Source of the DNA: Escherichia phage vB_VIPECOOM01
Sequence record: OQ721909
Strand: one strand, 5' to 3'
Length of the DNA: 64,000 bases
The notes beneath the pieces are model-generated. The model ran no database searches and was not told the DNA's origin. It saw nothing but the letters and a program-made list of their open reading frames with translations. Shown piece by piece: positions 16,516 through 21,290 of this stretch. The first letter of the stretch is position 1. Every line of letters begins with the position of its first letter. The position numbers and the translations under genes were made by a program.

Positions 16516-16519
16516 CAAT

Positions 16520-16546
16520 GGGGACCGAAAGGTCCCCATATTTTTA
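16520..16546. terminator. Bidirectional terminator between convergent gene 54 and the leftward Alt-region genes
   Basis: GGGGACC-GAAA-GGTCCCC hairpin flanked by T-rich sequence on both strands. Confidence 0.5.
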
Positions 16547-16834
16547 TTTGCGGAATGAAATAAAAGCAGCAACTGAAGCAACTAAACTGTCTTCAATATA
16601 AACTTCAATTTTTACCGGAGCTTCTGATTCAAATTTACCTGTTACTACACCTTGGAAAATGCTTTCAGTCTGTTCTGGCTTTGAAAAATTTTCAGAAGGA
16701 AAAATTCCGAACTTTTTATCTGTTCCAAAAATTTTGATAAATTCATCATAAACTGCTTCATTAAAAGCATTATCAGCAGGAATAACGCCTTCAACTACAA
16801 GTTCTTGACCTAAAAAGCGCAAAGAAGATTTCAT
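16544..16834 (-). CDS. Hypothetical protein, 96 aa (position of T4 alt.-3)
   Basis: ATG-initiated ORF downstream of an early-type promoter; identity by synteny. Confidence 0.55.
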   Translation of the reverse strand: MKSSLRFLGQELVVEGVIPADNAFNEAVYDEFIKIFGTDKKFGIFPSENFSKPEQTESIFQGVVTGKFESEAPVKIEVYIEDSLVASVAAFISFRK

Positions 16835-16865: not shown

Positions 16866-16895
16866 ACTATAACACAACACGAGGGACTTGTAAAC
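16866..16895 (-). promoter_or_regulatory. Early-type sigma70 promoter
   Basis: Minus strand reads GTTTAC, 18 nt, TATAGT, about 30 nt upstream of the 96-aa ORF; part of a ~50-bp cassette repeated upstream of alc. Confidence 0.4.
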
Positions 16896-18952
16896 TACAT
16901 TTTGAACTTTTTAGACATTCCGTTGATGTTAACCAAAGAAGCCAAGATTTGAGAAACTTCGTTTTCCTCTTCTTTTGATTCTTCTACAAGGAATTGATTA
17001 AATCCAGCCATTGGACGAACTTCACCAGTTTCCATCAGATGGTCGCCATCATATACCGATTCTTCTAATTGTTCAGAAGGAGGAACGATTGTGCCTTCGA
17101 CTAGATACTTATTATAAGCAGTTTCTTTCATCATGTACGTACTCACTTTATTAATCTTCAGTAGAATTCCACGTGGTAGAATAATTTCAGCTTCTGATGG
17201 AAATCCTGATAAATGACCTGGAACGATAACTTTGATTCGCTCAGCTCCTTTAATTACCATACCAACGCTAGTTTCAGCATCTTCATTCGCATAAGCAGAG
17301 CGACTGCCCATATGCATCAAATCTTCTGCGTCAACTGAACCTTCTCCTTCACCAGAAAATACTGCACCGGAATCATCTAGAGCCATATAGTTTTTACCAT
17401 ACTCACCGAAGATATTTGGTTTAAGCGATGTGGATACGAAGTTCTTGAAATAAAACATTTTATTTTCAATATTATGGCGTAAAGTTTTGAAAGTAACTTC
17501 TTGTCCACGGTAAAGTGTAGTTCCTGGAGGAAGAACTGAACCTTTAGCAAAGGCAGAATCCATTGTCTCGATGTGTTTAATAGCTCGTTCCATATATTCT
17601 TCACGGGTAGAATCTGGTTTACCTAAAAGGAACGAGTTCATTTCAACATATGAATCTGCACAATAATCTTCAATTACATCAGATTCAGCTTGAGTCAGTC
17701 CTTTTGGAGTTACTTCGGTGCTTGCGTATTCATATGCCTGGGCGGCAGATTCATTAATCAATTTATAAATGCCATTCATGACAAATTGAATAATAGCTAC
17801 CTTTTCATCTGGCGTGGCTTTAGAACCTTTAACTAAATCATTAACAATTTTCTTAATAACATCAAAGCTGTTAGAAATATTAATATCAGAAAGATCACTT
17901 AAAATTTTATCAGTTTTATAATCAAAAAATTCTTTATTCTTTAAATATTCTTGAGAACCTTGATATGTTATATCGCTCTGTAATTTAATAGATGGATCAC
18001 GTAAACGTGCATGAGCCAATGCAATATGATTTCGGAAGCTTTCTAGTTCATAATCGTTAGATTTAAAACGAGAAGCGCTTCTCATACCACCTATAGCTCC
18101 TTTGCTGAAGTTTGAACCAATTTGAATAACGCCAGAGTTCATTGATCCTTCTGCTTTATATACCGGAACTTTAGATTCAAACTCTTGATATTTCTTAGCA
18201 GCGAAGCTATCGCCCTGAAGTGAAGCATCAACAGTAGAATATTGAGCTTGTGCTGCTAATCGACGACTAATTTTAGTTTTCTGAATAACAGCTTGATCCG
18301 TGCGCTTATCATTTTCTAAAGCAATAGAAGCAGCAACAGCAACAGCTTTAGGAACAGCATTACCCGTTTTAACGTCTACATAAACATCACCAACCTTTGA
18401 TTCAACTTTTGTGAATAACTCAGTTGAAATAGGAGGTACACCTGGAATGTCTTCTAAATTGGCATTTTTACGGTAAACCATAATATATGCATACTTTTTA
18501 TCGTAATCCCAGATTTCCTTTAAAAGAACATATCGACCTGCTCCTTTAGTACGTACTAAACGGTCGGCAATAACTTGCATTTGACGAGCTGCGCCGTTTG
18601 TTTTACTCTTTAGTACGCGGAATAAGCATGCATCAATTTTATACTGTTTCATTGTTTGAAGAGCAGTATCAAAAACCGCATTAATGACACCAATTGGGTT
18701 TCCACCCAAGTTTTTAAGTTTAACTAATGATAGTTTTTCATTGACACCTATCATTACGATATGCATCATTTTATCGCCTGGCTTAACGTTTTTATTTGTA
18801 TCACCACCAGAGGTGTATGTACAAAATCTAAATCCAGGAAGCACACTTTCTTCACCGGCTTGAATAGCAAAAATTTGAGGTATTTTATGCTTAGGATTTA
18901 AGTTAACAACCGGCGCCGAAGCGCCGTCAAATAATTCTGTAATAAGTTCCAT
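16895..18952 (-). CDS. Alt-like ADP-ribosyltransferase paralogue (685 aa)
   Basis: N-terminal ~230 aa strongly similar to the adjacent Alt (MELITELFD..., KIDAC, GRYVLLKEIWDYDKKYAYI); C-terminal ART motifs YRGQ, FVSTSL and SEAEIILPRG retained; central region divergent. Confidence 0.85.
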   Translation of the reverse strand: MELITELFDGASAPVVNLNPKHKIPQIFAIQAGEESVLPGFRFCTYTSGGDTNKNVKPGDKMMHIVMIGVNEKLSLVKLKNLGGNPIGVINAVFDTALQTMKQYKIDACLFRVLKSKTNGAARQMQVIADRLVRTKGAGRYVLLKEIWDYDKKYAYIMVYRKNANLEDIPGVPPISTELFTKVESKVGDVYVDVKTGNAVPKAVAVAASIALENDKRTDQAVIQKTKISRRLAAQAQYSTVDASLQGDSFAAKKYQEFESKVPVYKAEGSMNSGVIQIGSNFSKGAIGGMRSASRFKSNDYELESFRNHIALAHARLRDPSIKLQSDITYQGSQEYLKNKEFFDYKTDKILSDLSDINISNSFDVIKKIVNDLVKGSKATPDEKVAIIQFVMNGIYKLINESAAQAYEYASTEVTPKGLTQAESDVIEDYCADSYVEMNSFLLGKPDSTREEYMERAIKHIETMDSAFAKGSVLPPGTTLYRGQEVTFKTLRHNIENKMFYFKNFVSTSLKPNIFGEYGKNYMALDDSGAVFSGEGEGSVDAEDLMHMGSRSAYANEDAETSVGMVIKGAERIKVIVPGHLSGFPSEAEIILPRGILLKINKVSTYMMKETAYNKYLVEGTIVPPSEQLEESVYDGDHLMETGEVRPMAGFNQFLVEESKEEENEVSQILASLVNINGMSKKFKM

Positions 18953-18955
18953 GAT

Positions 18956-21052
18956 TTATCCTTGAACGAACTTGTAAGGCATGTTTGTAATATCTATGCA
19001 AGACGCAATAATTCCAAGAGATGATTCTGCTTTCTGTTTAACATTTGATGAAACAAATGATGCAAAGTCAACTCTGTCTTCTATTTCAATATCACCTGTC
19101 ATTGCAACCAATTCACCAGTTTCCATTAAATGGTCTCCATCATAGATTACCGATTCGGTGAGTTCTTCCGTAGTCATAACTTCAGCTTGAATGAGTTTTG
19201 TATTATTAGATGTTGTTCCGTCATTATTGGAAGCATCAGTTATTTTATTAACTTTGACCATCAATCCGCGTGGTAAAATAACTTCAGCTTCAGTTGCTAT
19301 TCCGAGACTTCCTGGATATACAACATTAACTTTATGAGCTCCATCAATTGCCCATCCTATTTGAACTTTAACGTATTCAGGATTTTCTTTATACGCTCTT
19401 ATTTCGTTTGGATTAATAGTTATTCCTTCTTCATTTTTATCAACTGTTAATTCATTGCGAGCTTCTGGTTCTAAAAGACCAATACCAGCATGCGTAATTC
19501 CAAAACGTCCAAAAATGATAGGAGTTAAAGAAGTAGATACAAAATTTCTGAAATAGAACACTTTATTTTTAACTAGTGCTTCGTATATAGGAGCAGTCAT
19601 ACTTTGAGCACGATAAACTGTAATGCCTTCTGGTATACGGTCACCATTTTCAAAGGCTGAATCTAAATTATTTATCGCAGATTCAATTTCTTTTTCACTC
19701 ATTACATCATATCGTTCTGGATTATAGCGTCCTAAAAGAAGATTATTGATGTCAGTATATCCTGATCCACAATACTCTCTAATGCCGCGCTTTTGCGATG
19801 GAGTATATTTAGAACCATCACGGGCAATAGTAATATCAATCATTGGACCTGCACCAATTCCAGAAAAGCTATAAATCATTCGTTTGAGGAATTTAGTTTT
19901 TGCTGCGTTCCAGGAATTTTTAGTTATTTCTTCCCAGACTTCATCTGGCTGTCCTTTACGGGTTTTATTATGTTTATCAAGCCAAGTATCTTTATATTCT
20001 TCAAAGAATTTATTAATAGCTGCTGCATACTTCTCTAAACATTTTATTGAAGTAGTTGGTTCATTTTTGATCGCGTTAAAAATTACATCTTTAATTTTTT
20101 CAGAAACTTCATTAACCTCACTTTTTGAAAAGAATTTATAGTCATAGTGAAGTTCATCTGCAGTCCCTTCGGCAATAATTTTTGCTGCCTTAGTTTTAGA
20201 AGCTAATGAATTAATTCCAAGTTTCATTTCTTCCGCTTCGGGAATTAAAGGAGCTGTAGCAGGTTTATTGAAATTAGCTGCAGTAGATTCATACTTCTGG
20301 AATAATTCACTTTCAAATCTAGAAGATTCCAATGACTGACTTTGTGCAATTGCTCTACGGGAAATTTTAACTTTAACTATTACAGCTTGGTCAGAACGTT
20401 TATCGTTTTCTTGCGCAATAGATGCTGCAATTGCCTCATTTTTAGTTACTTGAGCTCCAGTATCTTTATTGATATAAACATCGCCGACCTTCGATTCAAC
20501 TTTAGTAAAGAGCTCGGTACTAATTTCTGGAACTCCTGGAATGTCTTCTAGTGATACATTTTTGCGATGTATAAGAATATATGCATACTTTTTATCGTAA
20601 TCCCAGAGTTCCTTAAGAAGGACGTATCTGCCACCTGAACGACTACGGATAAGTCTATCAGCAATAACTTGAATTTGTCGAGCTTGACCAGCAGTTTTAG
20701 ACTTAAGAATACGGAGCATACAGGCATCAATTTTATACTGACGCATCGTCTGCATTGCAACAGTAAAAACTGAATTGATATAATTAATTGGGCTTGGACC
20801 GAGACCTTTTAATTTAGCAATTGAACCTTTAGCAGTTAATGTAAAAGGAACAATATGCATCATTTTATCGCCCATTTTTAAATCGCGATTAGTATCACCT
20901 CCAGATGTATAGGTACATAAACGAAAGCCTGGTTGTTCAATTGCGTCATCAACATGAACTGAAAAAATTTGCGGTATTTTCTTCTTTGGATTTAAGTTTG
21001 TAATCGGAAGAGTAGTATCTTCGTCAAATAATTCTGTAATGAGTTCCATCAT
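18956..21052 (-). CDS. alt: Alt ADP-ribosyltransferase (capsid-packaged, modifies host RNA polymerase)
   Basis: 698-aa ORF matching T4 Alt (MELITELFDEDTTLPITNL..., ART motifs YRAQ, FVSTSL, TEAEVILPRG). Confidence 0.93.
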   Translation of the reverse strand: MMELITELFDEDTTLPITNLNPKKKIPQIFSVHVDDAIEQPGFRLCTYTSGGDTNRDLKMGDKMMHIVPFTLTAKGSIAKLKGLGPSPINYINSVFTVAMQTMRQYKIDACMLRILKSKTAGQARQIQVIADRLIRSRSGGRYVLLKELWDYDKKYAYILIHRKNVSLEDIPGVPEISTELFTKVESKVGDVYINKDTGAQVTKNEAIAASIAQENDKRSDQAVIVKVKISRRAIAQSQSLESSRFESELFQKYESTAANFNKPATAPLIPEAEEMKLGINSLASKTKAAKIIAEGTADELHYDYKFFSKSEVNEVSEKIKDVIFNAIKNEPTTSIKCLEKYAAAINKFFEEYKDTWLDKHNKTRKGQPDEVWEEITKNSWNAAKTKFLKRMIYSFSGIGAGPMIDITIARDGSKYTPSQKRGIREYCGSGYTDINNLLLGRYNPERYDVMSEKEIESAINNLDSAFENGDRIPEGITVYRAQSMTAPIYEALVKNKVFYFRNFVSTSLTPIIFGRFGITHAGIGLLEPEARNELTVDKNEEGITINPNEIRAYKENPEYVKVQIGWAIDGAHKVNVVYPGSLGIATEAEVILPRGLMVKVNKITDASNNDGTTSNNTKLIQAEVMTTEELTESVIYDGDHLMETGELVAMTGDIEIEDRVDFASFVSSNVKQKAESSLGIIASCIDITNMPYKFVQG

Positions 21053-21072: not shown

Positions 21073-21080
21073 TATTTATA
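21073..21080 (-). promoter_or_regulatory. T4-type late promoter (TATAAATA) for alt
   Basis: Minus-strand TATAAATA about 20 nt upstream of the alt ATG, consistent with late expression of a packaged protein. Confidence 0.5.
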
Positions 21081-21085
21081 AAATT

Positions 21086-21103
21086 AAAGGCCCGAAGGCC
21101 TTT
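21086..21103 (-). terminator. Hairpin terminator after the 62-aa ORF
   Basis: AAAGGCC-CGAA-GGCCTTT hairpin right after the stop codon, followed by T-rich sequence on the minus strand. Confidence 0.45.
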
Positions 21104-21290
21104 AATAATCTAGTGGTAAGAGAGTACGGTATATTTCAAACTTCGGACCTTTTTCATAGGCATCAAATGTTTCTGTAAATTTATTATAAGCATATGCATC
21201 TACAAATTCAAGAACGATTTGTGATACAGAAGTAGAAACATCTCCACCTTCTTTTTGAGCCACGACAATTGTTTCTAAGTAAGCTTTCAT
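21102..21290 (-). CDS. Hypothetical protein, 62 aa
   Basis: ATG overlaps the DNA ligase stop codon (ATGA), indicating translational coupling; followed by a terminator hairpin. Confidence 0.55.
   Translation of the reverse strand: MKAYLETIVVAQKEGGDVSTSVSQIVLEFVDAYAYNKFTETFDAYEKGPKFEIYRTLLPLDY

Follow-up and report, generated by a model that had tools for sequence, protein, structure and literature searches.

A 64,000-nucleotide (nt) stretch of DNA from Escherichia phage vB_VIPECOOM01 (OQ721909), hereafter the window, whose coordinates are used throughout, carries on its minus strand two adjacent genes of the Alt family: (i) copy 1, which is alt itself (697 amino acids, aa; 18956..21049), and (ii) copy 2, a second Alt-family gene (685 aa; 16895..18952). 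Judged from their sequences, both genes encode intact, selected R-S-E ADP-ribosyltransferases (ARTs) and ancient paralogues with a four-part layout in each, made up of a 6-residue N-propeptide with an N-module of ~235 aa, a helical centre, a C3/iota-like ART domain, and a C-terminal propeptide. We consider it fairly probable that copy 2 is a second packaged and injected arginine ART, which is encoded in a late two-gene operon and has host targets unlike those of copy 1. The sequence comparisons further indicate that copy 2 is the intact form of a gene of which the T4 genes alt.-1 and alt.-2 are the deleted remnant.

Layout, domains and catalytic residues of the two copies

The queried 4.8 kb of the window was found to be 100% identical to OQ721911 (Escherichia phage vB_VIPECOOM03, a Tequatrovirus), in which both copies are annotated as Alt-like, and both were assigned to PHROG 802 ('Alt-like RNA polymerase ADP-ribosyltransferase'). 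The locus is flanked by DNA ligase (gene 30)/alt.1 on one side and by alt.-3/gene 54 on the other. An earlier reading of this DNA (the original prediction) had described two same-strand open reading frames (ORFs) of ~690 aa lying 3 nt apart, and this is borne out by the minus-strand ORFs 18956..21052 (698 aa) and 16895..18952 (685 aa), with the spacer ATC (18953-18955) between the TAA of copy 1 (18956-18958) and the ATG of copy 2 (18950-18952). The further statement that both begin MELITELFD holds for copy 2 and for the annotated copy 1, but the 698-aa ORF itself begins MMELITELFD. The start of copy 1 annotated in GenBank, and likewise in T4, is the second ATG (21049), which gives MELITELFD and 697 aa, while the extra in-frame ATG at 21052 would give one Met more. 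This tandem in-frame ATG ATG (21047-21052) is also present in T4, and a Shine-Dalgarno (SD) sequence, GAGG, lies at a distance of 2 nt to the first of these codons and of 5 nt to the other. The annotated second ATG is favoured because of the 5-nt as opposed to the 2-nt spacing, and the published six-residue propeptide (ITE-6) agrees with it as the start.

Membership of both proteins in the Alt family was examined by profile and pairwise comparison. Both match the Pfam family PF03496 (ADPrib_exo_Tox) far above its gathering cut-off of 23.4 bits (129.1 bits for copy 1 and 72.4 bits for copy 2; E-values of 4e-20 and 2e-37 for the two proteins), and BLASTP aligned them to one another at 41% identity overall (E = 1e-164), in keeping with the predicted tandem of Alt-type ARTs. 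Neither protein was covered by a model in NCBIfam. In the homologues, PF03496 is accompanied by a second precomputed Pfam family, PF26846; it was absent for both proteins in a local Pfam scan at E ≤ 0.01 and is presumably a newer model of the Alt N-terminal region.

When the two copies were compared by region, identity was found to be 68% over aa 1-239, 8% over aa 239-410, 32% over the ART domain (aa 410-625), and 41% over the C-terminal tail. The ~230 common N-terminal residues noted previously thus correspond to aa 1-239. The unrelated centre is likewise real, as no similarity was detected there by BLASTP (E = 10) or by hhalign between clade profiles (probability 0.7%), but it spans ~170 residues rather than the ~250 originally proposed.

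The R / S-T-S / E-x-E signature is retained in both copies, as the original prediction had it, in the form of Y479-R480-A-Q, S505-T-S507, and E587-A-E589 in copy 1 and Y481-R482-G-Q, S507-T-S509, and E587-A-E589 in copy 2; the R, S, S, E, and E residues were invariant in a family alignment of 18 diverse homologues. A paralogue devoid of its catalytic Arg, Ser, and Glu residues, which had been raised as the finding that would speak against the prediction, was not what we found, since copy 2 keeps R482 (codon 17507-17509), S507 (17432-17434) and S509 (17426-17428) of S507-T-S509, and E587 (17192-17194) and E589 (17186-17188) of E587-x-E589, all on the minus strand. The E-x-E motif, as opposed to Q-x-E, is the signature of the arginine-specific members of the R-S-E clade. 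On the basis of this motif, both enzymes are predicted to be arginine specific. A sequence search of the PDB gave nothing at E ≤ 0.01 with copy 2 and weak CDTa/iota matches only with copy 1. Because no PDB sequence matched copy 2, its catalytic mapping relies on the family alignment and the fold search. In the alignment of copy 1 to CDTa, the R in 'TVYR' falls on 'TVYRRS' and the E-x-E in 'TEAEV' on 'GEYEV', the stretches that carry the catalytic residues of CDTa.

An AlphaFold2 (AF2) model of copy 2 (mean predicted local distance difference test, pLDDT, 74; predicted TM-score, pTM, 0.58) placed an alpha/beta domain at the N-terminus, followed by a helical centre, an ART domain rich in beta structure, and a tail that was poorly predicted. 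In a Foldseek analysis of this model, the ART domain (aa 411-625; 17078..17722, minus strand) gave matches with E-values between 1e-8 and 1e-5 to Vis (E = 3.5e-8, TMt 0.72), Certhrax, CDTa, C3, and VIP2. Within the ART domain, an insertion between STS and ExE (aa ~510-560; 17300-17425, minus strand) was poorly predicted (pLDDT < 50 at residues 516-519 and 533-555) and markedly acidic; the sequences of this insertion in copy 1 and copy 2 are unrelated. For the central helical region of copy 2 (aa 240-410; 17723..18235, minus strand), similarity was detected neither to copy 1 nor to T4 Alt, but it is 47% identical to that of QL01_199 of the Dhakavirus QL01. An exhaustive phmmer search with this region against 1.84 billion cluster representatives returned 0 matches, even to its own family; this outcome is uninformative, most likely due to the choice of cluster representative, and does not speak for uniqueness of the region. 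The N-terminal module (aa 1-239; 18236..18952, minus strand), which includes the 6-residue propeptide MELITE (18935-18952), was modelled as an alpha/beta domain with a pLDDT of 84 and no close solved structural relative. Its Foldseek matches were weak (E = 1e-7 to 1e-4, TMq 0.4-0.5) and fell on large proteins from unrelated myoviruses, some of which are annotated with zeta-toxin, cytidine deaminase, or ParB domains; these matches may reflect a shared head-delivery module, possibly in wider use.

Relation to T4, T2 and T6, and evolution of the locus

Copy 2 was compared with the alt locus of T4 (Alt, NP_049811; alt.-1/alt.-2, NP_049810 and NP_049809, PHROGs 23015 and 15247). T4 alt.-1 and alt.-2 were found to match residues 1-55 and 62-118 of copy 2 near-perfectly, and DNA alignment revealed that T4 is ~97% identical across the alt.-1/alt.-2 locus apart from two changes: (i) 1,699 nt of the minus-strand gene (16915..18613; aa ~114-679 of copy 2) are absent from T4, the edges of the deletion being marked by the imperfect 9-bp direct repeats CTAAAGAGT (18605-18613) and CTAAAAAGT (16906-16914); and (ii) T4 is without one A of a run at ~18789-18794, which results in a frameshift that splits alt.-1 from alt.-2. 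By this alignment, copy 2 is the intact form of T4 alt.-1/alt.-2 and the counterpart of T2_202 and of the 685-aa gene that T6 has at the same position, with the T4 genes as its deleted remnant. The 685-aa gene is hence not itself a characterised T4 gene, an outcome that the original prediction had asked to be checked. According to the T4 RefSeq record, alt.-1/alt.-2 represent an 'old duplication of the first part of gene alt'; in the T6 record, the remark on the long gene is 'apparent insertion in alt.-2'. Both notes take the event in the opposite sense to the one favoured here: the repeat-flanked junction, a Dhakavirus orthologue in the corresponding place, and the purifying selection to which the long form is subject indicate that the T4 lineage underwent a deletion. 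The 'insertion into alt.-2' of the T6 record was rejected in favour of this T4 deletion on the basis of the junction alignment and the Dhakavirus orthologue.

Some 395 phage records were found to contain copy 2 in full length (≥95% aa identity), among them those of T2 (T2_202), RB6, RB68, wV7, and HP3, and the gene is intact in ~80% of the sequenced relatives (Tequatroviruses). The T4-type deletion junction was found in 91 of 498 records (~18%), which comprise many independent isolates in addition to laboratory stocks of T4 and their derivatives. Among the Tequatroviruses the copy 2 proteins are 97-98% identical in aa sequence, and the pairwise ratio of nonsynonymous to synonymous substitution rates (dN/dS) was 0.02-0.05 among four orthologues and low in every domain, compared with 0.05-0.07 for copy 1. 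These ratios indicate that copy 2 is a working gene under strong purifying selection. With this range of dN/dS and an intact gene in ~395 records, the possibility that copy 2 is a pseudogene was rejected. The record of Shigella phage sb4 (PQ666542) shows both alt genes broken up into several ORFs, and gp48 as well; the alt fragments are probably sequencing or assembly frameshifts and not biology, and such records inflate counts of 'fragmented alt', so the sb4 record was disregarded in our reading of alt fragmentation.

Copy 1, which is orthologous to T4 alt by position, is 70-72% identical to T4 Alt overall, with protein identities of 100% in the N-module, 31% in the centre, 65% in the ART domain, and 96% in the C-tail. 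Sliding nucleotide identity to T4 alt was 95-100% from the start to ~20335, 32-82% from 20334 to 19201, and 87-98% from there to the stop codon, which delimits a variable cassette of ~1.1 kb (19201..20334, minus strand) covering the centre and most of the ART domain. Copy 1 is thus a recombinant mosaic relative to T4 alt. With 98% identity to T2 alt, copy 1 is by sequence a T2-type allele, and this allele is probably common to T6 as well, where an alt of equal length (697 aa) is found at the same position (length and position were compared). As the central/ART cassette differs, the model enzyme T4 Alt and the Alt of T2 and the present phage are different enzymes. Phage PYPS2T has a T4-type copy 1 allele together with an intact copy 2. 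The original prediction that only the downstream copy matches T4 Alt was correct in pointing to copy 1 (18956-21049), but this copy is downstream in plus-strand coordinates alone and is transcriptionally upstream; copy 2 is 41-42% identical to T4 Alt overall and 13% in the centre.

Dhakavirus QL01 (KT176190) carries three tandem alt-family genes, QL01_201, QL01_200, and QL01_199. The effector part of copy 2 (centre/ART/tail) was found to be 47/57/65% identical to QL01_199 compared with 8/32/41% to its neighbour copy 1, and because copy 2 is in this part closer to QL01_199 than to copy 1, the paralogy of the two copies is older than the Tequatrovirus-Dhakavirus split. In contrast to the effector parts, the N-modules are more alike within a genome (68% in the present phage and 89% in QL01) than between the genera (42-46%). 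QL01_200 and QL01_199 follow the same pattern as copy 1 and copy 2, with N-modules 89% identical and effector parts 19-39% identical. Synonymous divergence (dS) between the N-modules of copy 1 and copy 2 was 1.4-1.5, i.e., saturated, and recent gene conversion was rejected on this ground. The within-genome likeness could be equally well due to old homogenisation or to co-evolution with a partner specific to the lineage (e.g., the prohead core). Taken with the mosaic structure of copy 1, the N-module pattern describes the alt locus as a constant delivery part joined to an exchangeable effector cassette.

Expression, processing and proposed function

An exact-match scan of the window detected the T4-type late promoter consensus TATAAATA at 21073..21080 (minus strand), 17-24 nt upstream of the copy 1 ATG (21049), and found no such consensus between copy 1 and copy 2. 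Over the whole window the number of TATAAATA sites was not above chance (10 found versus 8.4 expected), and the late promoter call therefore rests on a position conserved with T4. An SD sequence for copy 2, AAGGA (18959..18963, minus strand), is located within the last codons of copy 1, 6 nt before the copy 2 ATG, a placement that fits predicted co-transcription and coupled translation of the two genes.

T4 Alt is a component of the prohead core that is present at ~40 copies, is kept in the head, and is ejected with the DNA (PMC9958956, PMC9026906). Mass spectrometry of T4 Alt has demonstrated that the protease gp21 (gene product 21) cuts off six N-terminal residues (ITE-6) and 63 C-terminal residues (LTE-619), with 68.2 kDa left (PMC5694885); this mass was reproduced by calculation from the T4 Alt sequence. 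The prohead-protease processing that the original prediction assigned to the N-terminal region accordingly agrees with ITE-6 and captures one of two cuts. The N-terminal gp21 motif (I-T-E, cut after residue 6 of MELITE and before L) is identical in copy 1, copy 2, and T4 Alt, and an L-x-E is found at the place homologous to T4 LTE-619, as LTE-632 in copy 1 and LEE-631 in copy 2. Use of these predicted sites would yield a mature copy 1 of residues 7-632 (70.2 kDa) and a mature copy 2 of 69.2 kDa. In copy 2, the predicted C-terminal site L629-E-E631 (17060-17068) and the 54-residue C-propeptide (aa 632-685) together occupy 16898..17068 on the minus strand. The P1 glutamates at both sites (E6 and E631 in copy 2) were invariant in the family alignment.

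These signals bear on an alternative in which copy 2 is made but not packaged or injected, and either acts late in the producing cell or is a catalytically dead structural or scaffold-associated protein. Presence in the head has been shown solely for the T4 counterpart of copy 1 (PMC5694885, PMC9958956), as this alternative would allow; however, the N-propeptide MELITE is the same as in copy 1, an L-x-E stands at the homologous C-terminal cut, the P1 glutamates are invariant, and copy 2 is predicted to be co-transcribed from the late promoter that drives alt. A dead protein is further at odds with the finding that every catalytic residue is invariant and under selection. We regard a non-packaged or inactive copy 2 as very improbable.

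Instead, we propose that the late promoter upstream of copy 1 would drive both genes as a two-gene operon, and that both proteins would be made late, packaged into the head, trimmed by gp21, and injected, steps that we infer for both from the gp21 sites, the late promoter, and the SD. Inside the cell, both enzymes would use NAD+ and, within seconds of infection, mono-ADP-ribosylate host proteins on arginine. Copy 1 would take the part of T4 Alt, with RNA polymerase alpha and other proteins as targets, and copy 2, with its unrelated centre and different ADP-ribosylating turn-turn (ARTT) loop, would most likely modify another set of host proteins. The N-terminal module and C-terminal propeptide would serve as constant delivery parts, and the centre and ART domain as a swappable effector cassette. 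T4 and ~18% of its sequenced relatives have lost copy 2 through the 1.7-kb deletion.

In the ARTT loop, which serves substrate recognition in C3/iota-type enzymes, the residue at position -3 from ExE was aromatic (F or Y) in all of the copy-2-clade proteins examined, as opposed to P, I, or Q in the copy-1 clade; in copy 2 it is F584 (17201-17203, minus strand), as compared with P or I in copy 1/T4 Alt. Copy 2 hence conserves neither the centre of T4 Alt (13% identity to T4 Alt, 8% to copy 1) nor its ARTT loop. The unrelated centre, from which the original prediction had suggested a different substrate, and the clade-specific ARTT difference, which strengthens this suggestion, point at the level of sequence to targets of copy 2 that may differ from those of Alt. 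Were copy 2 instead a redundant duplicate, it would act on what Alt modifies (RNA polymerase alpha Arg265 and others) and merely supply more injected enzyme. The family, catalytic residues, N-module, and processing sites are all alike in the two copies, and T4 and the T4-type-deletion records do without copy 2 with no obvious loss of viability, both of which are compatible with redundancy. Yet the centres are not detectably homologous, the ART domains are just 32% identical with an ARTT loop that differs by clade, and both lineages have been kept separately in Tequatrovirus and Dhakavirus under purifying selection, which is unexpected for a dosage duplicate. Redundancy is thus considered quite improbable.

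A second set of host targets for copy 2 could also take the form of a counter-defence role, in which copy 2 is primarily an injected effector that disables a host immunity or toxin protein by ADP-ribosylation, and not a factor for taking over transcription, its patchy retention tracking the hosts that have the target. T4 Alt reportedly ADP-ribosylates the MazF toxin, which would be in line with such a role. The locus is polymorphic in presence/absence and in cassette exchange, as is typical of arms-race genes; Ip1, Ip2, and Ip3, other T-even internal proteins, are anti-restriction factors of strain-specific value (PMC12373910); and the neighbouring gene alt.-3 is the site of mutations, which extend the C-terminus of Alt.-3, by which T4 mutants escape the CmdTAC defence system (PMC11618068). 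Against these points, copy 2 is highly conserved in Tequatrovirus (97-98% aa identity, dN/dS ~0.03) and is not diversifying like many counter-defence proteins. A primarily counter-defence function is, in our estimation, rather unlikely.

Several observations weigh against copy 2 as a second injected effector with its own targets. T4 and the T4-type-deletion records, natural isolates among them, manage without copy 2, and because these phages dispense with it, any benefit of copy 2 would be conditional. A literature search gave no expression, virion-proteome, enzymatic, or functional data for copy 2. The full-length AF2 model is only moderately confident by both its pLDDT and pTM. Lastly, the central region and the ARTT -3 residue are not established as target selectors in Alt enzymes, the ARTT argument being borrowed from the C3/iota toxins. 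Nonetheless, a second packaged and injected arginine ART remains the reading that we find fairly probable.

As a kind and as a catalogued gene, copy 2 is already known: T2, T6, and hundreds of genomes have it in their annotation, where it is called 'Alt-like RNA polymerase ADP-ribosyltransferase' or 'hypothetical protein', its remnant in T4 has been an annotated feature for decades, and tandem alt duplication was noted in 2006 for 44RR, RB49, and T4 alt.-1/-2 (PMC1524935) and in 2014 for ZZ1, Ac42, JS98, and Bp7 (PMC4177764). The original prediction is thus essentially right, and its question whether the second copy is already described is answered for the gene as such, while a functional study was not found in the literature search. 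New here are (i) the deletion map from T4 alt.-1/alt.-2 to the full-length gene, (ii) the evidence of selection on copy 2, (iii) the conservation of both mapped protease sites, and (iv) the module-wise orthology together with the ARTT difference.

In a wider and more tentative view, which we put forward as a possibility, most T-even phages (T2 and T6 included) inject two different arginine ARTs that combine a constant head-delivery module with swappable effectors, the second effector having been lost in T4 and its targets possibly including a defence or stress-response protein. Knowledge of injected phage ARTs comes almost wholly from T4, the atypical genome with a broken remnant of copy 2. 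If the view is correct, the host targets of the second effector have never been seen, as the model phage lost the gene. Were copy 2 indeed packaged and directed at targets of its own, most T-even phages would carry out a so far uncharacterised modification in the first seconds of host take-over, and part of the variation among T2, T4, and T6 in host range or sensitivity to defences could stem from this gene. The practical value is that experiments are given a well-defined target, for which the gene is clear, the ends of the mature protein are predicted, the catalytic residues are located, and natural null alleles allow comparison; it does not lie in a new kind of system.

Additional features were identified on either side of the two copies. 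A terminator-like hairpin, AAAGGCCTTCGGGCCTTT, followed by a T-run (21086..21103, minus strand) was read from the sequence after alt.1 and just upstream of the alt late promoter, an arrangement also found in T4; the hairpin parts alt.1 from this promoter. The product of alt.1 (62 aa; 21102-21290, minus strand) matches Pfam PF24647 'Phage blade protein' (E = 1e-29). The next gene downstream of copy 2 is alt.-3 (96 aa, DUF5498; 16544..16834, minus strand), with a sigma-70-like promoter of its own at 16866-16894 and a bidirectional terminator beyond it at 16518-16539.

Comparison with known systems

The alt gene of T4 resembles the present locus in its place (gene 30/alt.1 to alt.-3/gene 54) and late promoter context, and T4 Alt has the same domain layout, R-S-E residues, and N- and C-terminal gp21 sites as copy 1 and copy 2. 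Copy 1 differs from it by the central and ART cassette, and copy 2 by the unrelated centre and the ARTT loop. T4 alt.-1 and alt.-2 compare with copy 2 as short remnants, without the 1,699 nt and with the 1-nt frameshift, in flanking DNA that is ~97% identical. The tandem alt arrays of the Straboviridae (QL01; JS98/JS10, 44RR2.8t, Bp7, and Acinetobacter phages ZZ1/Ac42) consist, as here, of adjacent same-strand alt paralogues beside baseplate genes; copy number varies among them (one plus a remnant, two, or three), and the N-modules are genome-specific. QL01_199, the alt.-3-proximal gene of its array, is the cross-genus orthologue of copy 2, with 47-65% identity in the effector part.

The C3, iota-Ia, CDTa, VIP2, Vis, and Certhrax toxins have the same ART fold, as seen from the predicted model of copy 2, and the same R, S-T-S, and E-x-E residues. 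In the 'GYAGEYE' stretch of CDTa the ARTT residue at -3 is aromatic, a feature kept in copy 2, and the equivalent residue of iota-Ia and C3 is likewise aromatic. Unlike these R-S-E toxins, the Alt copies are phage head proteins with N- and C-propeptides and a 400-aa N-terminal extension, and their delivery is by DNA injection rather than secretion; they also differ from the C3/iota toxins by the insertion of ~35-40 aa between STS and ExE. T4 ModA and ModB are R-S-E ARTs of the Alt/VIP2 clade from the same phage group (PMC5512222) and are described as small, early-expressed, non-packaged enzymes (PMC5512222, PMC9503650). This description implies that ModA and ModB are without the N-module, central region, and gp21 propeptides, and it sets them apart from the two Alt copies.

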